From assembly GCA_013151035.1 (NCBI GenBank), contig JAADJB010000008.1:11466-75465 (forward strand): a DNA stretch of 64,000 nucleotides, written 5' to 3'. Below the pieces are notes generated by a model that worked only from the letters and a program-made list of their open reading frames with translations, was not told the origin of the DNA and made no database searches. Made by a program: the position numbers and the translations under genes. Within the stretch, counting starts at the first letter, position 1; every line of letters starts with the position of its first letter. Positions 3,288-60,607 of the stretch are shown one piece after another. The stretch comes from Gammaproteobacteria bacterium (lineage in GTDB: Bacteria > Pseudomonadota > Gammaproteobacteria > JAADJB01).

Positions 3288-3311
3288 TTGTTTTTTTGAG
3301 TTCGAGGTATG

Positions 3312-3434
3312 AGCTGTTGGTCTCTATTCGAGACACGCCGTGAATACATCCATGTAGGCTCGATGCCCGCGTCCATGCGGGCAACGGTCTCGAATAGAGA
3401 TCAACAACTCGTACCTCTTGTGGCTAACTGAAAG
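3312..3434. repeat. structured palindromic repeat (REP-2 family), copy 1
   Basis: Outer inverted repeat tctctattcgagac / gtctcgaatagaga encloses an inner hairpin gcccgcgtccatgcgggc. A second copy lies at 25222-25325. Confidence 0.7.
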
Positions 3435-3453: not shown

Positions 3454-4623
3454 GTGGTAAGAATGAGTAAGTCCTCCCCCGTAGCTATTCCTTATTGGCG
3501 TCTATCCGGTTTCTACTTTGTCTATTTTGCGACCATTGGTGCGCTGATACCCTATTGGAGCATCTATCTCAAGGATCTGGGTTTTAATGCCGCCGAGATT
3601 GGTGAGCTGGTCGCGATTATTATGGCGACCAAACTGGTGGCGCCGAATCTGTGGGGGTGGATTGCGGATCATACCAATCAGGGTATGCGTATTATTCGCC
3701 TGACCTCGTTACTGGCTGCGATTAGTTTTGCGGGTGTCTTTTTTACTGAAAGCTATCTTTGGTTAGCCGTTGTTATGGTGACTTTCAGCTTCTTCTGGAA
3801 TGCCGCACTGCCTCAGTTTGAAGTGACGACGATGAATCACCTGGGTGAATCCACCCATCGTTACAGTTCGATCCGTTTGTGGGGATCGATTGGTTTTGTC
3901 GTTACCGTAGCAATGATTGGCCCGATGTTGGATGTGTATGGTGTGCGTCTGCTACTACCGGTATCGTTATTGTTATTTTTTCTGATCTGGGTGTTTAGCC
4001 TATTAGTGCCTGAAGGACGGCAGCCACAATCCCATGCCAATAATAATGAGCGTTTCCATTGGGTGTTACGCAAACCAGAGGTATTGGCATTATTATTAAT
4101 CTGTTTCCTGATGCAGATGAGTCATGGTCCTTATTACACCTTTTTCTCTATCTATATGGAAGAGCATGGTTATTCCCATACCGCTATTGGTCAGTTGTGG
4201 GCATTAGGTGTCATTGCCGAGGTGATTGTGTTTATGGTGATGCACCGCTGGATACCCCGTTTCGGTGCGCGTTATCTGATGATTGCCAGCCTGTTATTAA
4301 CCACCTTGCGCTGGTTGTTGACCGCCTTTTTCCCTGATTATGTCGCCGTAATTATCTTTTCCCAGACACTCCATGCTGCTAGCTTTGGTATCTATCATGC
4401 CGTAGCGATTGATCTTATCCATAAGATGTTTGTGGGTCGACTACAAGGTCGTGGTCAGGCCTTGTATAGCAGTGTCAGTTTTGGTGCTGGTGGTGCTATC
4501 GGTAGTCTATTGAGTGGTTATCTCTGGTCAGGCATAGGCGCACAATGGATGTATGTATTGGCAGCATTGACCAGTGGCATTGCCGTGATGGTAGCTATGT
4601 GGGGTTTGAAGCCATCCCAATAA
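3454..4623 (+). CDS. MFS transporter (12 TM), HcaT/YhhS-like
   Basis: 389 aa with about 12 hydrophobic segments. The N-terminal motif resembles the 3-phenylpropionate-type MFS_1 family. Confidence 0.7.
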   Translation: MVRMSKSSPVAIPYWRLSGFYFVYFATIGALIPYWSIYLKDLGFNAAEIGELVAIIMATKLVAPNLWGWIADHTNQGMRIIRLTSLLAAISFAGVFFTESYLWLAVVMVTFSFFWNAALPQFEVTTMNHLGESTHRYSSIRLWGSIGFVVTVAMIGPMLDVYGVRLLLPVSLLLFFLIWVFSLLVPEGRQPQSHANNNERFHWVLRKPEVLALLLICFLMQMSHGPYYTFFSIYMEEHGYSHTAIGQLWALGVIAEVIVFMVMHRWIPRFGARYLMIASLLLTTLRWLLTAFFPDYVAVIIFSQTLHAASFGIYHAVAIDLIHKMFVGRLQGRGQALYSSVSFGAGGAIGSLLSGYLWSGIGAQWMYVLAALTSGIAVMVAMWGLKPSQ

Positions 4624-5594: not shown

Positions 5595-6340
5595 TTGATT
5601 ATGCCCTGGTATCACCTTGAACGGCACCGTCACGGCCTTGCTTCCATTGCAGTCTTGTCACTAATTGCCACTAATAGTTACTCGGCAGAAGAAGTTTTTC
5701 GTCTGGATAATCGAACTGATTTTGTTAACTATGATCTTAGTGGGCCAGGTAAGGGAAAAAGTTTCTACGATGAGGGTGCGCATTATCTACAAGAGAGTGA
5801 TTTGACTTATAAGACCACCTTATTCTACAACGGCTAAGGGTATTGCTAAAACCCACAAATCGGGGCAGGCTAATCGCATAACGCTACGTACTTATTTCAA
5901 AGGCACCCGGATTAATGCCAAACTGGAACGTGTTAGTACTGATTTTAAAGCCTTGGCAGGGAGCGCAACACCGGATCGTCAAATGGGTCTATATCAAAGT
6001 CAGCAAAAAAATTGCCAGGCGTTGGAAGTTGACGGGTAGCTATGATTATTACTCGAATAATCTGGATGGCAGGAATGCCAGTGGCACGACAAAGAATCAG
6101 CTCGGTTCATTCGGCCTTAAACGCACTCGTCTATTTGATCGCAAGAGCCTCGTTGTGTCGACCTCGTTACGTCAAAAACGAACACGTAACAATACCTATC
6201 GTGCTTCCATGTTACTGAATCGCGGTAAGGCACATCGATTCAACTTTCTGCTTGAGAAAAATCTATCGGATACTTATGCATCTGGTGGCAATGACTCTCT
6301 GAGATTATTGAGGTGGTTGGTTTGGAAAATGGTGAATTGA
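5595..6340 (+). pseudogene. frameshifted outer-membrane beta-barrel-like gene remnant
   Basis: A signal-peptide ORF (5595-5837) is followed by at least two frame changes, one near an A7 tract at 6003-6009. The continuing frames show the alternating polar/hydrophobic pattern typical of OMP strands. Confidence 0.35.
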
Positions 6341-6396
6341 AGATACTAGAAACCAGGACTGGTAGGTTTTGGCAGTAGCATCAGCAGAATAATATA

Positions 6397-6750
6397 ATGC
6401 AAATAAATACAACAAGAAGATTGGTGGATGTGGTTATCCTGTTTATCGCGGGAAATTACCTGTATAACTTTATGGGTGATTTATCATCCTCGATTATTGG
6501 GTTCTTTGCTTCGTTGGCCTATATATTCTTTTATCGCTTGGCGAGAAAGGCATTAGGTAGTCCGCCATTTTCATATTACTTTTTTATGTGGGTTCCTACG
6601 GTGGTATTTGTGTTTGCCCCTGTCGGGTATGATTTTTATCAGGCGGATTCTGCCGGGCTCATTTCCTGGGCTGTTGGGGGGCTTCCGTGGTTCCAACTGA
6701 TACTGCCGATTGTATTGCTTTACATTGTTCGCGAAGAGTTAAAAAAGTAA
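6397..6750 (+). CDS. small integral membrane protein (3-4 TM)
   Basis: 117 aa with hydrophobic segments. Lies directly upstream of the giant lipoprotein gene. Confidence 0.4.
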   Translation: MQINTTRRLVDVVILFIAGNYLYNFMGDLSSSIIGFFASLAYIFFYRLARKALGSPPFSYYFFMWVPTVVFVFAPVGYDFYQADSAGLISWAVGGLPWFQLILPIVLLYIVREELKK

Positions 6751-6836
6751 CGGGTTGGAACTGTGGTATTATGAAATTTCGTGCAATGTTGACTATAAAA
6801 CCGTGAGAAAATTTTAATCAATCAGGTGGATAAAGG

Positions 6837-9800
6837 ATGTCTCGTTTTTTATTACAGAAAGCAACACCGAAAGCTTTTATAGCGCTGCTCCTTGTCTTTT
6901 TATTATCTCTGCTATCGGGTTGTGGTGGCGGTTCAGCGTCATCTAATGGCAACAATGCCAGTGTAACGATCAATATTGGCAGCTCTCAAAATGTTGTGTC
7001 GGTTAATTCGGGGCAATGGCTTCTTAATCAAATCATCACTCAGGCTTATGCCGCCTCATTGTTGACGGAATATAGTTATCTATCACGGATCACTCTGGAA
7101 ATATGGGAGGGTGACAATAATATAACGGGTCAAATTAACGAGAGATATAATAAGGGCACTTTTGGTGCGCTTGTCGCTGCTGAGGGCAATGATGCCTTGT
7201 TGTTGCTGGATACGAGTACCCGTATTAGTGTGCCGGCAGATGTGGCGTTGAGATATGTCGTTAAGGCCTTCCAGACGGTGGATGGTGAGTTAGTCCGGTT
7301 TTTTCAGACTGAGGCGAGCTACACGGCAGGGCTTGATAGTGCCGATTTTTCGGGTAATCTCAATATGTCACTTCGTGTGAATATAAACGACTCGATGATC
7401 CAGCAAATGGATACGCCTTCATTGCCCTGTGTTGATGAAGATATTGACCCGATCACTAATGCTGTTGTGGGCGATGGTATTTGTGATACCTATGAAAACC
7501 TGTTTGTGGTTATTGATACTCGAACGGGTTCAGTCACTGAAGGTCAGTATATCCCTGATGTTGATCTGGACGGTATACCTAACGGTATTGATACAGACTC
7601 GGATGGTGATGGTGTTGATGATGCGAATGAGGATGCATCGCAGAATTCAAATAATGGCTATCCAAATTTTGTACATACTAACAATAACCCGACATCGACC
7701 CGTGCCGAGATTACGCTTGCTCAAGGGGCCACGCAAACATTTAGTCCTGATGTCGATGATGATGATGAGGGTGATACCTTTACGGTTATTTCGGTAATAC
7801 AGCCATTACTAGGCGCGGTGTCTATCGTGGGTGGTGCATTGCACTATGAGGCACCACGAGACCAGTCAGGTGATACTCAGTTTAGTTATACGGTGGTAGA
7901 TTATGCTGCACAGACACCGATTAGCGGGATAGCACTCATACACATTACAGCCGCTACGCCACCGAATAGTGCCCCGGACGTTTATTCGCTAGCAAGTCTT
8001 GAAACCAATGAAGATACAGCAATAAGTAATATCGATGTTGTCAGCGAGACTGATGCTCAAGACCCTGATGGTGATAACATCAGTGTCACTGCCTTTGATA
8101 CTGTTTCAAACTGGGGTGGAGTTGTTACCCAAAATCTGGATGGTACGCTGAATTACACACCCGCTGCAAATTACAACGGTAGTGATAGTTTTGCGTTTAC
8201 TATTAGTGATGACTTTGGTGGATCTATAGCAGGGGTGTTCGGCTTCGATGTGTTGGCCGTCAATGATGCGCCTGTTATTAGTGGTGCTCCGGTTATCACT
8301 GTGGAGGAGAATAGTACCTACAGTTTTATGCCAACAGCTAATGACGTTGATGCGGGTGATATCCTGGTCTTTAGTCTCACTAATCAACCTGCCTGGGCAA
8401 GTTTTAACACAATAACAGGTGAGTTGAGTGGTATACCGGCGAGAGATGATGCTGGGGTTACTCTGAATATTGTAATCACTGTAACCGATAATGAGGGTTT
8501 AACCGATTCTCTACCTGCTTTTGATCTAACGGTGACAACAAATAATGTGCCGCCTGTTTATCAATCACAGATCTATGAGCACTTTTCTGGCGGTGAAAAT
8601 CATACGCTGGCACTGAGGAGTGATGGTACGGTTTGGGCGTGGGGGGGCAATAATTATGGTCAACTGGGTAATGGTGATTTTGGTGGCGGCTCCACGCCTG
8701 TTCAGGCACTGGGGCTGAGTAATATTATCGATCTGGCTGCGGGTGACTTTCACTCTGTGGCCTTACGGAGTGATCGAACAGTCTGGCTTTGGGGGCATAA
8801 TAATAATGGTCAACTGGGAAAGGACTCTGCTGAACATGAATCGAGCATACCTTCGCAGCTTGTCGGACTAACAGCGGTTGATGCGGTTGCTGCTGGTCGT
8901 CAGTACACGGTCGCATTGAAAACGGATGGTACCGTCTGGAGTTGGGGTAGAAACAGTTATGGTCAGTTGGGGAACGATTCAACCACTAGCACAGAGATAC
9001 CTCAGCAAGCTGTTGGCTTAAGCAATATTATTGCGATTAGTGCGGGTCGTTACCACGCCCTTGCACTCAAGGGTGATGGCACCGTCTGGGCGTGGGGTAG
9101 AAATAATTATGGCCAACTGGGTGATGGTAGTGATACTCAGAGGACTATACCGGTTCAGGTGAGTGGTTTGACGGGTGTTGTTAGTATTGCGTCGGGTGGC
9201 AGTCATAATATTGCGATGAAATCCGATGGTACGCTGTGGCTGTGGGGCTGGAATCTTTATGGCCAATTGGGTGATGGCACGATGACTGATTCCGCCATAC
9301 CAGTTCAAATTGCAGGTCTAACAGGGGTCGATAGTATGGCTGCCGGTCGTTACCACACCCTTGTTTCCCGATCTGATGGTACGGTCTGGAGTTGGGGCAG
9401 GAACCTTGAAGGTCAGTTAGGGGGTAACACAACGAGTGGTTCAACAAGCCCTGTTTTGATGACATCTCTATCGGATATTACCGCGGTTTCTGCCGGTTAT
9501 AAACATTCGTTGGCACGTGCTTCTGATAACACGCTATGGGCATGGGGACGTAATGGTTATGGTCAATTGGGCGATGGTGCCGACCTGGTTCTGACGACCC
9601 CTCGAACAATGAGTGAGATAAGGTCTGTGTTGGCTATTACCGCTGGACGTAAGCATTCTGCGGCTATTTTAGACGATGGTCGTGTGTGGTCGTGGGGTGA
9701 TGGCGATGATGGCGAGTTGGGTAATGCTGCAACTGTTGATGTCAGTGTGCCAGTGCCGGTGGCAGGGCTTAAATCTGTACGTCAAGTTACATTGGGTATT

Positions 9801-12212
9801 GGGTTTAGTGTGGCCTTGAAGGAAGACGGCACGGTGTGGTCATGGGGCAGTAATGGCTATGGTCGATTAGGGGATGGCACAACCAATGATTCCTCAGTGC
9901 CGGTACAAGTGTCGTCATTGAGTGATGTGTCCGATATATCCGCTGGTCGTTATCACGTGCTTGCCTTGATGTCTGATGGCAGCGTCCAGTCCTGGGGCAG
10001 AAACAGTGATGGTCAGCTGGGTGATGGGTCGAATACACATCGACATACACCGGTACAGGTGGGTGGTTTAAGTGGTGTTATTGCTATTGCAGCGGGTGGT
10101 TATCATTCATTTGCGCTGCGGAATGATGGTACCGTCTGGGCCTGGGGTCGAAACACTAATGGCCAACTGGGTGATAATAGTTTTGTGGATAGCGCTGTGC
10201 CAGTGCAAGTATCCGGGCTCAGTGCTATCACTGCTATTGCGGGTGGTGGTTATCATGGTTTTGCCCTGAAGGATGATGATAGTCTCTGGGTGTGGGGTCG
10301 AAATGATAGGGGGCAGGTGGGTAATGGTTCTCTATCGGATTTGGCTACACCCGTTTCTATCTTGACGAATGTGGCTGATTTTTCTGCTGGGGATTATCAT
10401 TCACTGGCAATCAGGAATGATGGCACGTTATGGTCCTGGGGTTGGAATGATAATGGACAGCTGGGTAATGGTGATACGTTCAATTCTTCCACACCGGTTC
10501 AGATGCAAAACGCGGGTAATGTCATTGCTATTGCCGCGGGTTATTATCATTCCATGATGTTGCGTACTGATGGAACAGTCGCTACATGGGGTTATGATAA
10601 TAATGGGCAATTGGGTACTGGTCGCTCATTGATCTCCACAGTGCCTTTGCGTGTGGCTGATGGTGTGTCGTTGCATGCCTGGGAAGATGTCAGCGCGACC
10701 ACTATTGATGTATTGGGTTATTTTACCGATGCCGATGGTGATCTACCTTCTGTTATTTCAGTCGATGCTAATAGTGCAGAGGGTGGCAGCGTTATTGATA
10801 ATAACGATGGTAGCTTTAACTATACACCTGCGCCTGGTTTTAACGGGATTGATTTCTTTGCTTATACGGTGTCGGATGGGGTTGAATCAGTATCGGTAAC
10901 AGTGACGGTTAATGTGGGTTCGGTTAATGACAGGCCGTTAGCTGTTGATGACAGTTATACCTTTTCCATTGGTGATACAGCGCTTATGGTGGTCGCCAAT
11001 AGCGGTGTCCTGTCGAATGATAGTGATAGTGATTTCGATGCCATGACAGTAATGGTTGATACCTTGCCTGCCAATGGCACACTGGTGCTTAACATTGATG
11101 GTAGCTTTGTTTATACCCCTACCGGCGCACTGACGACCGATAGCTTTACCTATATGGTCAGTGATGGTCAGGGTGGCGTTGATACAGGGCTAGTTAGTAT
11201 TTCGGCAGACTGGATTACCTCTATCCAGTATTTCAATTTCTCGGACCTGTCGGCCTTTACTCTTAATGGTCAGGCATCCACCTTGAATCCGGTTGCGGGT
11301 GAGTCGGTTCTACGTTTGACAGCAACGGGTATTGGAGGCGGGGGCAGTGTATTCCTTAACCAGACTATTCCGCTACAGGATAATAGTGGCTTTAATGCCT
11401 CATTCAGTAGTTTCTTCAAATTCCGTATCAGTAATCCGGCAGGTATCTCTGACAGTGATGGACAGGGTGCCGATGGTCTGGTATTTGTCGTGCAGACGGC
11501 GGCAGATAGTGTCGGTGGTTTAGGCGGAGGTATAGGCTATTCGGGTATTAATAATAGTGTTGGTGTTGAGATTGATACCTACAATAATGGCGGTGGGGAT
11601 GGCAATAGTGGTAACCACGTTGGTATTAACACCAATGGTAATCTGTCCTCCATTGCATTGGCACCGTATCCTGATCGTTTCAATGACGGTGATACGTTCT
11701 TTGCCTGGGTGGATTATCAGGGCTCCAGCCAGAATCTGGAGGTGCGTATTTCAGCCGATGGGGTGCGTCCTGCGCTGGCGATGGTTTCAGCAACGATTGA
11801 TCTGGTAACAACCCTCGGTGTCTCTGATGCCTATATTGGTTTTACCTCAGGCAGTGCAGCGGCTACTAATAATCATGACATTCTGGCTTGGGAGTTTGTT
11901 AATGCCTACGCACCGATACAGGCTATGGGTACGGCACCGGTTGCCGTTGATGATGCCGAGGTAACGGGTCAAGATATTATTCTCGTTACCGGGAATGTCT
12001 TGTTGAATGACACGGATGTTGATGATGATGTGCTTAGTGTCAGTAATTACCAGACGACAAGTGCGCAGGGTGGGACTGTTGTTGATAATGGTGATGGAAC
12101 CTTTGCTTATATGCCTCCACCAGGCTTTTTGGGTGTTGATAATTTCGAATATACCGTGACAGATGACTTTGGTGGTTTTGATGTGGGTGTCGTTGGTATC
12201 AATGTGATGTAG
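6837..12212 (+). CDS. giant surface lipoprotein: TSP3-like Ca-binding repeats, VNDAP cadherin-like modules, 14 RCC1 blades, C-terminal L-type (legume-like) lectin domain
   Basis: Lipobox LLSGC. DxDxDGxxDxxD TSP3-like motifs at aa 240-265. VNDAPV / VNDRPL cadherin-like signatures. Fourteen W(S/A)WGxNxxGQLGxG RCC1 repeats, enough for two 7-blade propellers. The C-terminus (GADGLVFVVQ..VGVEIDTYNN..GNHVGINTNG..AWVDYQ) is a ConA-like lectin fold. Confidence 0.8.
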   Translation: MSRFLLQKATPKAFIALLLVFLLSLLSGCGGGSASSNGNNASVTINIGSSQNVVSVNSGQWLLNQIITQAYAASLLTEYSYLSRITLEIWEGDNNITGQINERYNKGTFGALVAAEGNDALLLLDTSTRISVPADVALRYVVKAFQTVDGELVRFFQTEASYTAGLDSADFSGNLNMSLRVNINDSMIQQMDTPSLPCVDEDIDPITNAVVGDGICDTYENLFVVIDTRTGSVTEGQYIPDVDLDGIPNGIDTDSDGDGVDDANEDASQNSNNGYPNFVHTNNNPTSTRAEITLAQGATQTFSPDVDDDDEGDTFTVISVIQPLLGAVSIVGGALHYEAPRDQSGDTQFSYTVVDYAAQTPISGIALIHITAATPPNSAPDVYSLASLETNEDTAISNIDVVSETDAQDPDGDNISVTAFDTVSNWGGVVTQNLDGTLNYTPAANYNGSDSFAFTISDDFGGSIAGVFGFDVLAVNDAPVISGAPVITVEENSTYSFMPTANDVDAGDILVFSLTNQPAWASFNTITGELSGIPARDDAGVTLNIVITVTDNEGLTDSLPAFDLTVTTNNVPPVYQSQIYEHFSGGENHTLALRSDGTVWAWGGNNYGQLGNGDFGGGSTPVQALGLSNIIDLAAGDFHSVALRSDRTVWLWGHNNNGQLGKDSAEHESSIPSQLVGLTAVDAVAAGRQYTVALKTDGTVWSWGRNSYGQLGNDSTTSTEIPQQAVGLSNIIAISAGRYHALALKGDGTVWAWGRNNYGQLGDGSDTQRTIPVQVSGLTGVVSIASGGSHNIAMKSDGTLWLWGWNLYGQLGDGTMTDSAIPVQIAGLTGVDSMAAGRYHTLVSRSDGTVWSWGRNLEGQLGGNTTSGSTSPVLMTSLSDITAVSAGYKHSLARASDNTLWAWGRNGYGQLGDGADLVLTTPRTMSEIRSVLAITAGRKHSAAILDDGRVWSWGDGDDGELGNAATVDVSVPVPVAGLKSVRQVTLGIGFSVALKEDGTVWSWGSNGYGRLGDGTTNDSSVPVQVSSLSDVSDISAGRYHVLALMSDGSVQSWGRNSDGQLGDGSNTHRHTPVQVGGLSGVIAIAAGGYHSFALRNDGTVWAWGRNTNGQLGDNSFVDSAVPVQVSGLSAITAIAGGGYHGFALKDDDSLWVWGRNDRGQVGNGSLSDLATPVSILTNVADFSAGDYHSLAIRNDGTLWSWGWNDNGQLGNGDTFNSSTPVQMQNAGNVIAIAAGYYHSMMLRTDGTVATWGYDNNGQLGTGRSLISTVPLRVADGVSLHAWEDVSATTIDVLGYFTDADGDLPSVISVDANSAEGGSVIDNNDGSFNYTPAPGFNGIDFFAYTVSDGVESVSVTVTVNVGSVNDRPLAVDDSYTFSIGDTALMVVANSGVLSNDSDSDFDAMTVMVDTLPANGTLVLNIDGSFVYTPTGALTTDSFTYMVSDGQGGVDTGLVSISADWITSIQYFNFSDLSAFTLNGQASTLNPVAGESVLRLTATGIGGGGSVFLNQTIPLQDNSGFNASFSSFFKFRISNPAGISDSDGQGADGLVFVVQTAADSVGGLGGGIGYSGINNSVGVEIDTYNNGGGDGNSGNHVGINTNGNLSSIALAPYPDRFNDGDTFFAWVDYQGSSQNLEVRISADGVRPALAMVSATIDLVTTLGVSDAYIGFTSGSAAATNNHDILAWEFVNAYAPIQAMGTAPVAVDDAEVTGQDIILVTGNVLLNDTDVDDDVLSVSNYQTTSAQGGTVVDNGDGTFAYMPPPGFLGVDNFEYTVTDDFGGFDVGVVGINVM

Positions 12213-12362: not shown

Positions 12363-14906
12363 ATGACTGAATTAGCAAAAGAATTACAATCCGTTAATCT
12401 CGAAGATGAGATGAAGCAATCCTATCTCGATTACGCCATGAGTGTGATCGTCGGGCGCGCCTTGCCGGATGTGCGCGATGGTCTTAAACCTGTTCACCGG
12501 CGCGTACTCTATGCGATGAATGTACTGGGTAATGACTGGAATAAGTCGTATAAGAAATCAGCCCGTGTCGTTGGTGACGTGATTGGTAAATATCATCCAC
12601 ATGGTGATACTGCGGTCTATGACACTATTGTGCGTATGGCACAGCCCTTCTCTTTACGTTATATGCTGGTGGATGGTCAGGGTAACTTTGGTTCCGTCGA
12701 TGGGGATGCCCCGGCTGCGATGCGTTATACCGAAGTGCGTATGGCGAAGATTGCCCATGAATTGATGGCGGATCTGGATAAAGAGACCGTTGATTTTATC
12801 CCTAACTACGATGAGTCCGAGAGTGAACCCTCAGTCTTTCCCACTCGTTTACCTAATCTATTGATTAATGGATCGACCGGTATTGCGGTTGGTATGGCAA
12901 CCAATATTCCACCGCATAATCTGGGTGAGGTTATTGATGCCTGCCTGGCACTGATTGATGATGAAGCGTTAGATATTAAGGGGCTGATGGAATATCTGCC
13001 GGGTCCTGACTTCCCAACGGCCGGTATCATTAACGGGGTCAGTGGTATCCATGAGGCCTATCATACCGGCCGTGGACGGGTGCATATTCGTGCGCGTAGT
13101 CACTTTGAGGAGAGCAGTACCGGGCGTATTAGTATTATTGTCGATGAACTACCTTATCAGGTGAACAAGGCGCGTCTACTGGAGAAGATTGCCGAGCTGG
13201 TGCGTGACAAGAGGCTGGAAGGTATCAGTAACCTGCGTGATGAATCCGATAAGGATGGTATGCGTATGGTGGTTGAGCTGAAACGCGGTGAGGTGGGTGA
13301 GGTGGTATTGAACAACCTCTACAAGCATACTCAGATGCAGGTGGTGTTTGGTATCAATATGGTGGCTCTATCCGATGGGCAGCCACAGTTGATGAATCTC
13401 AAGCAGATCATACAGGCCTTTGTTCGTCATCGCCGTGAAGTAGTAACACGGCGCACGGTGTTTGATCTGCGTAAGGCGCGTGAGCGCGCCCATATCCTGG
13501 AAGGTCTGGCGATTGCGCTGGCCAATATTGATGAAGTTATTGCCTTGATCAAGGCCTCCAAGACACGTCCCGAGGCACGTGAACAATTAATGACGAGGGT
13601 CTGGGAACCGGGCATGGTGAGTGGCATGCTGGAACGTGCCGATGTCGCGCGGCCAGAAGGCGTTGATCCTGCCCTGGGTTTGTCGGAACAGGGTTATCGT
13701 CTGACTGAGGCGCAAACCAAGGCGATTCTGGAGCTGCGTTTGCATCAGTTGACGGGGCTTGAGCAGGACAAGATTGTTAATGAATTCAAGGAATTGCTAG
13801 TTGTTATTAATGATTTACTTGACATTCTATGTTCCATGGATCGTCTGATGCAGGTGATCCGTGAGGAACTGGTTGAAATCCGTGATGAATACAATGATGA
13901 ACGTCGCACCGAGCTGTTGACCGATCATCTGGATCTGACCCTGGAAGATCTGATTACCGAAGAAGATATGGTCGTCACCTTGTCGCATACCGGTTATGCC
14001 AAGTCACAGCCGCTAACCGAATATACCGCTCAGCGTCGTGGAGGCAAGGGCAAGAGTGCGACTAATGTTAAAGATGAAGACTTTATCGACAAGCTGTTTG
14101 TAGCAAGCACGCATGATACCATTCTGTGCTTTTCCAGTCGGGGTAAGGTTTACTGGCTCAAGGTCTATCAATTACCGCAGGCCAGTCGCGCCGCGCGTGG
14201 CAAGCCGATTGTAAACCTGTTGCCAATGGAAGACGGTGAACGTATTAATGCTGTATTGCCAGTACGTGAATATACCGATAATCATTATATCTTTATGGCC
14301 ACAGCACAAGGTACGGTTAAAAAGACCCCATTAACGGCCTTCTCGCGTCCGCGTGCTTCGGGGATTATTGCGCTGGATCTGCGTGAGGATGATCAACTAG
14401 TCGGTGTCGAGATTACGGATGGTAGTAATGATGTCATGTTGTTCTCGGATGCCGGACGCGCGATTCGCTTTAAGGAAGCCGATGTGCGTGAGATGGGACG
14501 AACAGCTTGTGGTGTGCGTGGTATTCGTCTACAACCTGGGCAAAAGGTGATCTCTCTGGTGATTGCTGATGCCGGCTGTGTGCTGACAGCAACCATTAAT
14601 GGCTATGGTAAGCGGACGGCACTGGAAAACTATCCAACCTATGGACGTGGTGGTCAGGGTGTGATCTCGATACAGGTCTCTGAGCGCAATGGTGAAGTTG
14701 TCGGTGCGGTGCTGACCGATGACAATGATGAAATTATGTTAATAACGGATGCGGGTACGCTGGTGCGTACGCGTGTTAATGAGGTCTCGGTGGTGGGGCG
14801 TAATACGCAGGGGGTTCGTTTGATCTCTTTGTCCAGTAATGAGGCGTTGGTTGGTTTGGAGCGTATTGTTGAGCCGGAAGATGAGATGGATGAGGGTGAT
14901 GAATAA
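12363..14906 (+). CDS. gyrA: DNA gyrase subunit A
   Basis: 847 aa. N-terminus [39 protein letters not shown] with the active-site Tyr region. Acidic C-terminal tail. Confidence 0.95.
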
Positions 14907-14912
14907 AATGAT

Positions 14913-15022
14913 GGTGCGTAGTACGCACCCTACCTGGGATGTATATCTGCATTGTGAACCAATGAATATATGGTAGGGTGCGCACTGCGCACCAAATGTT
15001 TTTTTTGATAATGAGAGTGAAT
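14913..15022. repeat. inverted pair of REP elements plus T-tract (likely gyrA terminator)
   Basis: ggtgcgtagtacgcaccctacc (14913-14934) and ggtagggtgcgcactgcgcacc (14972-14993) lie in opposite orientation and are followed by T8. The 3' 50 nt are nearly identical to 47857-47905. Confidence 0.75.
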
Positions 15023-21698: not shown

Positions 21699-21710
21699 TA
21701 GAATTGTTGT

Positions 21711-21880
21711 GGTGCGCAATGCGCACCCTACGGGATAGGTGTATGCCTCTTGGGTAGGGTGCGTACCACGCACCAGTGTATGCATTCCCACGCAGAGCGT
21801 GGGAACGAGAAAAACAATAATAGTATGCATTCCCACGCAGAGCATGGGAACGAGAAAAGGTAGGGTGCGTACTACGCACC
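21711..21880. repeat. composite repeat block: REP, REP, a 45-bp hairpin unit twice in tandem, REP
   Basis: REPs at 21711-21731, 21753-21774 and 21859-21880. Two near-identical units gtatgcattcccacgcagagc(g/a)tgggaacgagaaaa at 21778-21814 and 21823-21858, each with an internal 6-bp stem cccacg/cgtggg. Confidence 0.8.
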
Positions 21881-21892
21881 AGGTAACTGTAT

Positions 21893-25118: not shown

Positions 25119-25221
25119 GTAATGAATCACTGCTGTTCCGTTAAGGGTTTATTTGCTTGCTGTAATCACATGATATTCATCGAAAAAAACATGCCTGGAA
25201 AGTTTGAGCCATGAATCACGT

Positions 25222-25325
25222 TTCTCTACCAGAGACACGCCGTGAAACCATCCATGGTGGCTCCACGCCCGCGTTCATGCGGGCAAGGGTCTCTGATAGA
25301 GAAGCGCAATCCCTGTCTCTTGAGT
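25222..25325. repeat. structured palindromic repeat (REP-2 family), copy 2
   Basis: tctctaccagagac ... gcccgcgttcatgcgggc ... gtctctgatagaga. Same architecture as 3333-3417, with compensatory changes in the outer stem. The tail cctgtctcttgagtt is shared with 34386-34400. Confidence 0.7.
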
Positions 25326-25337
25326 TGACGGGCAGTA

Positions 25338-30504: not shown

Positions 30505-30619
30505 GGTAGGGTGCGTACTACGCACTAAAGCTATCGGTGCTACCGTGTAAATAAAAGTCCCCCTTATCGGTAGTGCGTACTACGCACCAAAACCGTTGGT
30601 GCGTACTACGCACCCTACC
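30505..30619. repeat. cluster of three REP elements
   Basis: REPs at 30505-30525, 30569-30588 and 30598-30619. Same family as elsewhere in the window. Confidence 0.8.
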
Positions 30620-34351: not shown

Positions 34352-34385
34352 GAATATAACTTGGTGAGTTCGAAGCAGAGTAACG

Positions 34386-34439
34386 CCTGTCTCTTGAGTT
34401 AGCGAGGCAAGTGTCGCGGTAGGGTGCGTATTACGCACC
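34386..34439. repeat. REP-2 tail motif (cctgtctcttgagtt) plus REP (ggtagggtgcgtattacgcacc)
   Basis: Shares the cctgtctcttgagtt motif with 25311-25325. REP at 34418-34439. Confidence 0.6.
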
Positions 34440-34471
34440 ATGGTTTGATTATTTAAGTTTTAGGAACTGGA

Positions 34472-44640: not shown

Positions 44641-45016
44641 GAAGAGTTAGCTGGACAATCGCGCTGTGACTATGATTTAGTGGCAGGGAGGAAAGTCCGG
44701 GCTCCAATGGGCAGGGTGCCAGGTAACGCCTGGGAGGCGAAAGTCTACGGAAAGTGCAGCAGAAAATAAACCGCCAGCCTGTTTTACAGGCGGGTAAGGG
44801 TGAAATGGTGCGGTAAGAGCGCACCGCATGGGTGGTAACATTCCATGGTATGGTAAACCCCACCTGGAGCAAGACCAAATAGGGGGGCAGAGATACCTCG
44901 GTATTTCAGATATGGCCCGTATCGTCCCCGGGTAGGTCGCTTGAGGAATACGGTGACGTATATCCCAGATGAATGATTGTCCTCGACAAAACCCGGCTTA
45001 CAGGCTGGCTCTTCAC
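44641..45016 (+). ncRNA. rnpB: RNase P RNA, bacterial type A (M1 RNA)
   Basis: Near-identity to the E. coli M1 RNA conserved cores (GGAGGAAAGUCCGGGCUCCA, GGGCAGGGUGCCAGGUAACGCCUGGG, AGGGUGAAA, GGUGCGGUAAGAGCGCACC, GGUAAACCCCACCUGGAGCAAG.CCAAAUAGG, ACAAAACCCGGCUUA). The P1 stem is closed by gaagagttagctgg / caggctggctcttc. Confidence 0.92.
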
Positions 45017-47833: not shown

Positions 47834-47855
47834 TGCAGAATATGGATGCATCCAT

Positions 47856-47905
47856 GTAGGGTGCGCACTGCGCACCAGATGTTTTTTTGATAATGAGAGT
47901 GAAGT
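47856..47905. repeat. REP plus T7 plus conserved 25-nt leader; duplicate of 14972-15022
   Basis: gtagggtgcgcactgcgcaccagatgtttttttgataatgagagtgaa differs from the gyrA-serC copy by only two positions. Preceded by the palindrome atggatgcatccat. Confidence 0.75.
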
Positions 47906-60568: not shown

Positions 60569-60574
60569 CAGACG

Positions 60575-60596
60575 GTAGGGTGTGTACCACGCACCA
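60575..60596. repeat. REP element (ggtagggtgtgtaccacgcacc)
   Basis: Same family. Lies between the convergent lnt and the YbeL-like gene. Confidence 0.7.
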
Positions 60597-60607
60597 TTGA
60601 GGAGACC

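Follow-up and report, generated by a model that had tools for sequence, protein, structure and literature searches.

Structured elements at the aroC and lapA-lapB loci

The DNA analyzed here, called the window, is a 64 kb stretch of contig JAADJB010000008.1 (positions 11,466 to 75,465, forward strand) of a gammaproteobacterial metagenome-assembled genome (MAG; assembly GCA_013151035.1). It carries two copies of a structured element, both situated in intergenic regions between genes of the plus strand. Copy 1 (near 3304) lies between aroC and a gene of a major facilitator superfamily (MFS)/PPP-family transporter, while copy 2 (near 25206) occupies the gap between lapA and lapB, with rpsA-ihfB situated upstream. 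The initial annotation, made from the sequence of the window, had described two related structured copies; we found them on the plus strand as described, with a mutual identity of 78-81% over ~100 nt.

For delineation of the copies we used R1, a covariance model of 96 positions derived from an alignment, A2, of 71 copies from other Gammaproteobacteria. The window was scanned with filters off. The P1 outer helix as modelled by R1 has 22 bp, and 9 bp more pair in both copies; hence the whole elements extend over 3304-3417 and 25206-25319, ~114 nt each. The parts of the copies are listed below; L123 is the locus of a close relative described later.

3298-3303, no strand: left tail of copy 1, GAGTTC; GAGTT is repeated directly at the other end of the element in the window lineage
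3304-3417, minus strand: copy 1, whole element, a 31-bp P1 and a 52-nt core (R1 95.3 bits, E 1.4e-21; fold -66.4 kcal/mol, z -8.3)
3304-3334, minus strand: copy 1, P1 arm, the 3' one when the minus strand folds, GAC/GTC at the junction end
3337-3359, minus strand: copy 1, hairpin B, GCC-UAC-AUGGAU-GUA-UUCAC-GGC, with the loop AUGGAU as the complement of 3348-3353 (fold and R1 alignment)
3361-3386, minus strand: copy 1, hairpin A, variable stem gcccgcg..cgcgggc, with the loop AUGGAC as the complement of 3371-3376
3387-3417, minus strand: copy 1, P1 arm, the 5' one when the minus strand folds
3418-3424, no strand: right tail of copy 1, TTGTGGC, a diverged TTGAGTT (alignment with L123)
25206-25319, minus strand: copy 2, whole element, a 31-bp P1 including three G·U pairs on the minus strand (R1 86.5 bits, E 2.2e-19)
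25206-25236, minus strand: copy 2, P1 arm
25239-25261, minus strand: copy 2, hairpin B, with the loop AUGGAU as the complement of 25250-25255
25263-25288, minus strand: copy 2, hairpin A, with a degenerate loop AUGAAC (complement of 25273-25278) in which GGA is lost
25289-25319, minus strand: copy 2, P1 arm; its final 8 nt, CCTGTCTC, are the first half of a 15-mer singled out in the initial annotation
25320-25326, no strand: right tail of copy 2, TTGAGTT
34365-34400, minus strand: relic of a third copy, left end TGAGTTCGAAG, 10 nt, right end CCTGTCTCTTGAGTT; the core is gone (end matches)

The outer stem was correctly recognized in the initial annotation, where its length was given as 14 bp or more; the full length is 31 bp. 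Similarly, the conserved inner hairpin described there exists, but it is not the only one, as in the minimum free energy folds of each copy P1 closes a three-way junction with two hairpins. The inner hairpin GCCCGCGYYCATGCGGGC occurs exactly twice in the window, compared to a chance expectation of 0.06, and the 15-mer GAGACACGCCGTGAA also has exactly two occurrences.

The sequence cctgtctcttgagtt had been regarded as a motif adjoining copy 2, and it had to be reassigned: it consists of the last 8 bp of P1 and the 7-nt tail. Since the element at the aroC-MFS site of L123 ends with ...ATTCCTGTCTCTTGAGTTAAC, cctgtctcttgagtt is the element's own terminus, the end of P1 followed by TTGAGTT. The related tttgagtt noted beside copy 1 is indeed there, as the matching left tail (GAGTT) of that copy and not as a separate motif. 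The recurrence of the 15-mer at 34386-34400 was an exact match, but the match does not stand alone. It is located 10 nt past a sequence TGAGTTCGAAG (34365-34375) identical in 10 of 11 positions to 3297-3307 of copy 1. By these end matches, 34365-34400 is a third copy with the interior lost. The R1 scan of the window produced no match at 34365-34400; it detected only the two full copies, and the leftover weak matches were palindromes of the REP (repetitive extragenic palindrome) type.

Conservation of the fold

Both copies were far more stable than their shuffled sequences regardless of the strand, with z values for copies 1 and 2 of -9.2 and -5.5 on the plus strand and of -8.3 and -5.2 on the minus strand. 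The plus strand folds had energies of -70.6 kcal/mol (copy 1) and -57.5 kcal/mol (copy 2). When the two copies were compared on the R1 structure, we observed 23 shared pairs and 8 compensatory changes; at 5 pairs a wobble change affected one side, and another 2 pairs were disrupted in one of the copies. Compensatory changes in the outer stem had been reported earlier and are thus borne out. One position had been described as a G-U-compatible mismatch; it is C·A on the plus strand and makes a wobble pair on the minus strand only.

The covariation analysis of further copies, proposed in the initial annotation, was done on alignment A2, built by MAFFT with no structure information. Inclusion among the 71 copies had required a P1 pairing score of 14 or more, a criterion that inflates the percentage of paired cells but not the covariation. 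In this set 94.1% of the 2694 pair cells were standard pairs, and double changes were seen at 31 of the 38 pairs. The covariation was strong, 0.84 compared to 0.17 ± 0.01 in shuffled alignments and to at most 0.16 when the partners were slid by 1-3 columns. In P1, 97% of the cells were paired, with all four Watson-Crick types present at nearly every position. RNAalifold, applied independently to the 71 copies, delivered the same helices: P1 and hairpin A and, of hairpin B, the upper part. Therefore, the earlier proposal of a selected RNA or DNA structure, rather than of random repeats, holds in the further copies.

Among the full-length R1 matches, 119 of 147 had a P1 of at least 20 bp. In these 119 copies, P1 starts with GG and ends with CC, with A favored just 5' of the helix and G just 3' of it; its length is tightly limited to 27-32 bp with the mode at 29. 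The core of 51-54 nt is the same in every copy, while the flanking arms pair with each other yet differ completely between loci. Hairpin B has 3 + 3-4 bp; its asymmetric loop UUCAC is invariant, as are the residues of the junction.

The strand that folds

The two complementary strands can be told apart by the mismatches that they tolerate. We considered isolated P1 mismatches, each with a Watson-Crick pair on either side, and gave G·U and A·C equal treatment. On the strand that carries AYGGAY in the hairpin loops (the AYGGAY strand, complementary to the RUCCRU strand), there were 74 G·U or U·G mismatches compared to 11 A·C or C·A (p ~1e-12). Orthologous copies of four Xanthomonas species had C-G, U·G and U-A at one and the same pair and, in total, at least 7 wobbles versus 1 C·A on the AYGGAY strand. 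That these orthologs stay paired via wobbles indicates that pairing has been kept at resident loci over speciation time.

The AYGGAY strand is thus the strand kept foldable, and in the window it is the minus strand. Since the wobble test selects the GGA strand and not the UCC strand, it gives independent support for the AYGGAY polarity. The minus strand is one of the features missed in the initial annotation, along with the second hairpin, the class-wide family and its representation in Rfam as TwoAYGGAY and Ysr224.

Relation to the Rfam families TwoAYGGAY and Ysr224

In a permissive Rfam scan, TwoAYGGAY (RF01731) was the best family for both copies, each matched on the minus strand along its full length, with scores of 30.3 bits (E 0.004) for copy 1 and 18.9 bits (E 1.6) for copy 2 and the gathering threshold at 43. 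Like the window copies, the TwoAYGGAY consensus has a long outer helix that leads into a three-way junction bearing two hairpins side by side, and its parts follow in the same order: outer helix, hairpin loop CAUGGAUG, a single A, hairpin loop AUGGAU, 2 nt and closure. The corresponding loops are AUGGAC and AUGGAU in copy 1, and AUGGAU and the degenerate AUGAAC in copy 2. Across our family the loops are strictly ANGGAY, with GGA conserved at 99-100% and the second position taken by U (56%), G (30%) or A (10%).

There are differences as well. The second hairpin of the Rfam model is long (~15 bp), whereas hairpin B is short and has the invariant UUCAC; in the Rfam model, an internal loop separates the outer helix from the junction, and our family lacks it; finally, the family described here is massively multi-copy and often occurs in inverted pairs. 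The Rfam alignment of the window copies requires deletions of 8, 14 and 25 positions. Taken together, the copies are very probably the gammaproteobacterial form of TwoAYGGAY and thus of an already known kind.

Weinberg et al. (2010, PMC2864571) described TwoAYGGAY as a probable RNA, not cis-regulatory, and gave Gammaproteobacteria, Clostridiales and samples of the human gut as its sources. Gardner and Eldai (2015, PMC4333381) found that it matches the motif of CsrA strongly in two places and proposed a CsrA-sequestering small RNA (sRNA); one of its stems was reported with tandem G-A pairs (PMC4333381). In Rfam, the clan CL00106 holds both TwoAYGGAY and RsmW. TwoAYGGAY is also named in the abstract of a preprint (bioRxiv 10.64898/2026.09.22.753630), cited here by its abstract and term counts: TwoAYGGAY 52, reverse transcriptase 14, cDNA 24 and DRT 18, with counts of zero for the terms Gammaproteobacteria, Xanthomonas and 'transposable'.

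The second family, Ysr224 (RF02770), has the consensus ...GACGCCGUAAAUACAUCCAUGUAGGCUCGAGCCGCGCCAUCCCUGGCGCGGACG..., which is the core of the element on the opposite strand. A core GAC(A)CGCCGUrAA..CAUCCAUG..GGCUC-hairpin-ACG is common to the Ysr224 consensus, as aligned to locus L075 by cmscan, and to copies 1 and 2. Copy 1 scored 19.1 bits on the plus strand and other loci 27-29 bits, with the gathering threshold at 70; copy 2 was not listed for Ysr224 in the permissive scan. Rfam models the RUCCRU strand of Ysr224 with another predicted structure, while the wobble test favors the complementary strand. Ysr224 is a multi-copy family, among the most frequently annotated sRNAs of Rfam, and it is known as a Yersinia transcript, temperature-responsive in Y. 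pseudotuberculosis, with copies that differ in expression profile (PMC9029176, PMC12112432).

The matching order of parts on one strand and the complementary core on the other indicate that RF01731 and RF02770 represent two strands of closely related elements. The window copies are a variant caught by neither Rfam model at threshold. Moreover, both models miss most gammaproteobacterial copies, as none of the 18 tested loci was matched at threshold. One named type of element accounts for three previously unexplained intergenic features of the window.

Distribution and arrangement of the copies

A scan of the genome collection with the pattern ACACGCCGTGAANNCATCCATG retrieved at least 120 loci (L001-L120), in which R1 identified at least 171 copies among the matches listed, with scores of 60-108 bits. 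The taxa among these matches are almost all Gammaproteobacteria: Xanthomonadales, Cellvibrionales, Alteromonadales, Pseudomonadales, Methylococcales and Enterobacterales. They include Xanthomonas, Stenotrophomonas, Lysobacterales, Microbulbifer, Cellvibrio, Haliea, Marinobacter and Rheinheimera, as well as Pseudomonadales, a Methylococcales MAG, Sodalis and MAG contigs labelled Klebsiella. A copy was also seen in a contig labelled Bacillus subtilis SK7B5 (L032); this copy has 68% GC and is most likely due to contamination or mis-binning of a gammaproteobacterial contig.

Similarity searches by blastn with a window copy against plasmids and all complete E. coli genomes had no match, and the consensus core gave three weak matches to plasmids. 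With these two collections being essentially negative, the element appears to be chromosomal and not borne by enterobacterial plasmids. In 2.9 million viral contigs there were 0 matches.

No associated gene was found beside the 171 copies in an all-versus-all clustering of the 770 neighboring open reading frames (ORFs). The recurring families of neighbors were only generic ones, namely ABC ATPases, histidine kinases, SDRs and ribosomal protein S6. A transposase, a REP-associated tyrosine transposase (RAYT) or an integrase was not seen next to the 171 copies, and a reverse transcriptase (RT) was not seen within 8 kb.

The copies often come in pairs with a clear preference for one arrangement. 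Among 39 adjacent pairs closer than 600 nt, 29 were head-to-head (-,+), 4 were (+,-), 4 were (+,+) and 2 were (-,-), the signs referring to the AYGGAY polarity. Examples of the head-to-head arrangement are seen at L037:5062-5389, L061:4370-4712 and L103:5987-6956. The spacers within pairs (33-290 nt) are unrelated, and so are the arms of the two members; the flanking genes take every orientation. The doublets are therefore neither giant inverted duplications, as the arms differ, nor a reflection of convergent genes, given the variety of gene orientations. Whichever side a transcript comes from, in the head-to-head layout it runs through a RUCCRU-sense copy before it reaches an AYGGAY-sense one. 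Both copies of the window are singletons, with no adjacent partner.

In 12 positions on each side of P1, the 119 copies showed no conserved -10 box and no U-tract. A scan of the minus strand around both window copies likewise found no sigma-70-like site and no terminator. A role of the element as a terminator was ruled out, T being the rarest base after the helix.

A different arrangement was observed in a Saccharophagus MAG, where four units follow in tandem on the same strand (L006:3112-3745) with a period of ~180 nt and homologous 85-nt spacers. A GC hairpin and a T-run are situated after the tandem units (L006:3886-3925). By its layout, this array resembles a decoy RNA with multiple sites and might represent a CsrB-like RNA gene assembled from the module. 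Other RNAs were seen near some copies: a cobalamin riboswitch is located 110 nt from a copy in a Stenotrophomonas MAG (L075:3940-4160 and 4272-4367), and the Xanthomonas sRNA sX9 adjoins an alternating array of four copies (L103:5754-5829 and 5987-6956).

Presence and absence between relatives

The LapB proteins related to that of the window are 74% identical for the nearest relative and then at most 57%, which indicates a sparsely sampled, deep-branching gammaproteobacterial lineage. In the nearest relative at this locus (L121, LapB 74% identical), the distance from the lapA stop to the lapB start is 3 nt. The corresponding gap in the window is 219 nt and contains copy 2. The lapA-lapB junction is therefore polymorphic for the presence of the element, the site being empty in L121.

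At the aroC-MFS site, the locus L122 (MFS protein 81% identical) has only a decayed core, scored at 20 bits, with no P1, and retains TTGAGTT after the aroC stop. The locus L123 (95% amino-acid and 86% nucleotide identity) has a differently diverged element at the same site. The 3' half of the L123 element is 84% identical to copy 2 and only 69% to its positional ortholog, copy 1. A replacement of copy 1 at this site need not be invoked, as the 69% identity fits neutral divergence given 86% in the adjacent coding sequence.

In the window lineage, GAGTT flanks both ends of the element and is identical at every locus. It may have arisen by duplication of the target, or be a specific target or a tail conserved in the element. 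Direct repeats or target-site duplications were not found outside of the window lineage, where other taxa have different conserved tails. In the window itself TTGAGTT occurs 16 times on the plus strand and 2 times on the minus strand (18 compared to 10.2 ± 3 expected, a mild enrichment), for example at 3296, 4726, 25320, 30673 and 34394; several of the intergenic occurrences are 16-25 nt upstream of start codons. The excess is due in part to the tail of the element and in part or mostly to the gene-strand bias (44 of 48 genes).

A possible CsrA-binding module and its alternatives

The interpretation that we favor, tentatively and with a chance that approaches even, is that of a non-autonomous insertion module with a predicted bidentate CsrA site on the transcript of the AYGGAY strand. 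The unit would have spread as a non-autonomous insertion element. Its two adjacent GGA hexaloops, 26 nt apart, would make a two-handed site for one CsrA/RsmA dimer, and the element would either titrate CsrA or put the host transcript under CsrA control. The long outer helix would let the module assume the same fold in any genomic context and may also protect the RNA ends.

The loop sequences bear on this proposal. The loop of hairpin A lay outside the retrieval pattern, and its composition was C 93%, A 86%, N, G 100%, G 99%, A 99%, Y 99%, G 93%. The loop thus reads CANGGAYG, which is the consensus of CsrA/RsmE hairpins; the hcnA hairpin bound by RsmE is C-ACGGAU-G. The tandem array of L006, with its CsrB-like layout, also speaks for the proposal. 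CsrA dimers bridge two sites, and a GGA spacing of 26 nt is within the bridgeable range. If the proposal is true, then a mobile element with binding sites for a regulator would be a way to rewire a global post-transcriptional regulon.

Several observations weigh against CsrA binding as the explanation. A regex scan found no csrA in the 64-kb window. At curated thresholds Rfam reported in the window RNase P only and nothing relevant, and no match to the element in 18 loci. The constraints on P1 and the core, i.e., a perfect helix of 29 bp with fixed length and the invariant UUCAC and junction, exceed the needs of a CsrA site and indicate an additional or different partner. The head-to-head arrangement of 29 of 39 pairs is not predicted by the CsrA model. 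The preprint cited above, by its term counts, links TwoAYGGAY with reverse transcriptase and cDNA. In orientation to the neighboring genes, 52 copies were RUCCRU-sense versus 39 AYGGAY-sense, close to random. There is no conserved promoter or U-tract beside P1. Relative to aroC-MFS and lapA-lapB both window copies have the RUCCRU sense, with the AYGGAY strand antisense, and in the window only antisense transcription would yield the AYGGAY transcript. This placement of both copies, together with the loss of GGA in copy 2, suggests that the activity of the window copies may be weak or nil.

Some of the same observations would be explained by a mobile element acting at the DNA level with a strand-specific single-stranded DNA (ssDNA) form, comparable to REP/REPIN-RAYT, IS200/IS605 ends or the attC sites of integrons. 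The conserved loops and junction would then form the surface recognized by an HUH transposase or recombinase that acts in trans, with the outer helix needed for hairpin extrusion and effects at the RNA level incidental. We regard such an element as unlikely overall, if as one of two serious alternatives along with the RT role below. Many properties agree with it: the multi-copy intergenic occurrence with presence, absence and decay between relatives, the independence of orientation from neighboring genes, the dominance of inverted pairs as in REP doublets, the tight helix length with conserved ends and flanks (GG...CC, A and G outside), and the GAGTT direct repeats around copies of the window lineage. 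Tolerance of G·T wobbles on one strand is equally expected for folded ssDNA. However, no transposase, RAYT, integrase or recurrent gene accompanies the 171 copies; the core is nearly invariant across orders, while REP and MITE (miniature inverted-repeat transposable element) families are normally specific to a species or genus; and the unrelated arms of pair members cannot form a REPIN-like hairpin. Target-site duplications were not seen outside of the window lineage, the foldability of the Xanthomonas orthologs implies selection at the resident locus, and the (-,+) pairs speak against strict dependence on the replication strand. A role as an RT-associated RNA is still less likely. Here an RT encoded at another site would recognize the AYGGAY transcript and copy it, be it as a defense-type cDNA template or as a SINE-like retro-mobile unit, which would account for a strand-specific RNA fold despite random genomic orientation. 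The preprint cited above speaks for such a role by its term counts for reverse transcriptase, cDNA and DRT, and against it by the absence of Gammaproteobacteria and Xanthomonas among its terms. Selection for the fold of one strand does coexist with the lack of orientation preference and of an own promoter, and the invariant junction nucleotides exceed the CsrA requirement. Still, neither an RT nor a recurrent gene occurs within 8 kb of any copy, a poly-A or other hallmarks of retro-insertion are absent, viral contigs had no match, and the orthologous copies are old and stably maintained.

About as improbable as the RT role, or slightly more so, is a generic hairpin functioning in the sense of the flanking genes, on the plus strand and in the Ysr224 polarity, where it would be a stabilizer of mRNA 3' ends, an RNase III site or an attenuator like REP, ERIC or Correia elements, and the GGA loops would be irrelevant. 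The wobble asymmetry contradicts this role, as pairing is kept on the other strand; a plain stabilizer would give no reason for the junction and both hexaloops to stay invariant throughout a bacterial class, and neither strand has a U-tract after the helix. The facts in its favor are the strong folding of the plus strand (see the energies above), the RUCCRU sense of both window copies to aroC-MFS and lapA-lapB, the slight excess of RUCCRU-sense copies downstream of genes, and the Yersinia Ysr224 transcript of RUCCRU polarity with its varied expression profiles (PMC9029176, PMC12112432). As for chance similarity, an assembly artifact or a fragment of a terminal repeat of an insertion sequence (IS), nothing was found in its favor, the window having just two full copies, and its probability is negligible given the R1 E values (1e-21 and 1e-19), at least 120 independent genomes with the element, strong covariation, the lack of a nearby transposase, and the essentially negative plasmid and E. 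coli collections. An IS terminal repeat, which had been named initially as a possible identity of the element, is ruled out by the lack of a transposase beside the 171 copies.

The CsrA proposal has a more speculative and rather improbable extension. TwoAYGGAY and Ysr224 would be the opposite strands of a single module, present throughout the class and competent for insertion, by which ready-made two-handed CsrA/RsmA sites are scattered over gammaproteobacterial genomes; collectively, or as tandem arrays of the L006 type, the copies would be possible CsrA/RsmA decoys in lineages with no known CsrB/RsmY/Z-type RNA, and the doublets and the 29-bp helix would reflect the mobilizing or processing machinery. 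We know of no CsrB/RsmY/Z-type RNA in Xanthomonadaceae, and the same may hold for the deep-branching MAG lineage of the window. The R1 model, the strand assignment, the match between Ysr224 and TwoAYGGAY and the doublet rule make the ideas of a CsrA decoy, an ssDNA mobile element and an RT substrate directly testable.

Other features of the window

The window has a separate REP-like family, GGTAGGGTGCGTACTACGCACC, often present as inverted doublets, at 14905-14997, 21703-21778, 21856-21885, 30505-30619, 34418-34443, 47855-47880 and 60574-60599. One of its copies is located 18 nt from the relic at 34365-34400. This is presumably the repeat family listed first in the initial annotation. A small hairpin repeat, GTATGCATTCCCACGCAGAGCGTGGGAACGAGAAAA, has two tandem copies at 21778-21858; a similar hairpin, GTTCCCGCATGCGCGGGGATGAC, adjoins the element in L123 (L123:77-99).

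A giant ORF of 1791 aa (6837-12212) contains ~13 repeats of 150 nt (50 aa) at 8583-10625. By their signature of the WG.N..GQLG type, these look like RCC1/beta-propeller repeats. The sole match to Rfam at the curated threshold, the bacterial RNase P class A RNA, is situated at 44643-45016 on the plus strand with 324.9 bits.

Comparison with known systems

The element shares with REP/BIME/REPIN, ERIC/IRU and Correia repeats the intergenic location, high copy number, palindromic character, frequent inverted doublets, and presence or absence between relatives. REP sequences, however, are simple imperfect palindromes of 20-40 nt, specific to a species and to a RAYT, while the element described here has ~114 nt and a branched core; no RAYT was seen in the loci among the neighboring ORFs of the listed copies. 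A MITE is similar in being multi-copy with presence and absence (compare the empty L121 and the decayed L122). It has, though, conserved terminal inverted repeats that match an autonomous IS, and target-site duplications. Here the arms vary between loci and even within pairs, with no IS or transposase, and outside of the window lineage no duplication of a target site was seen. Thus, with respect to both MITE and REP the pattern of conservation is distinct: the arms vary freely, while the center is invariant across a bacterial class.

The attC sites of integrons resemble the element in that the structure is conserved and the sequence is not, only one strand is functional, and wobbles and extrahelical features are tolerated. 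Unlike the element, attC sites are located in cassette arrays beside intI; neither an integrase nor a cassette context was seen in the window or the loci. The distribution of conservation is also reversed, as attC conserves the ends (R''/R') and varies the center.

The Csr/Rsm sRNAs are single-locus genes with a GacA/UvrY-dependent promoter and a terminator, whereas the elements have neither and are scattered in both orientations. These sRNAs carry 5-22 GGA sites with no enclosing 30-bp helix, compared to two sites per unit here. On the other hand, the likeness in the sites themselves is close: GGA is exposed in the loops of CANGGAYG hairpins, two per unit, with one retained in copy 2, and the four tandem units of L006 present eight such GGA loops.

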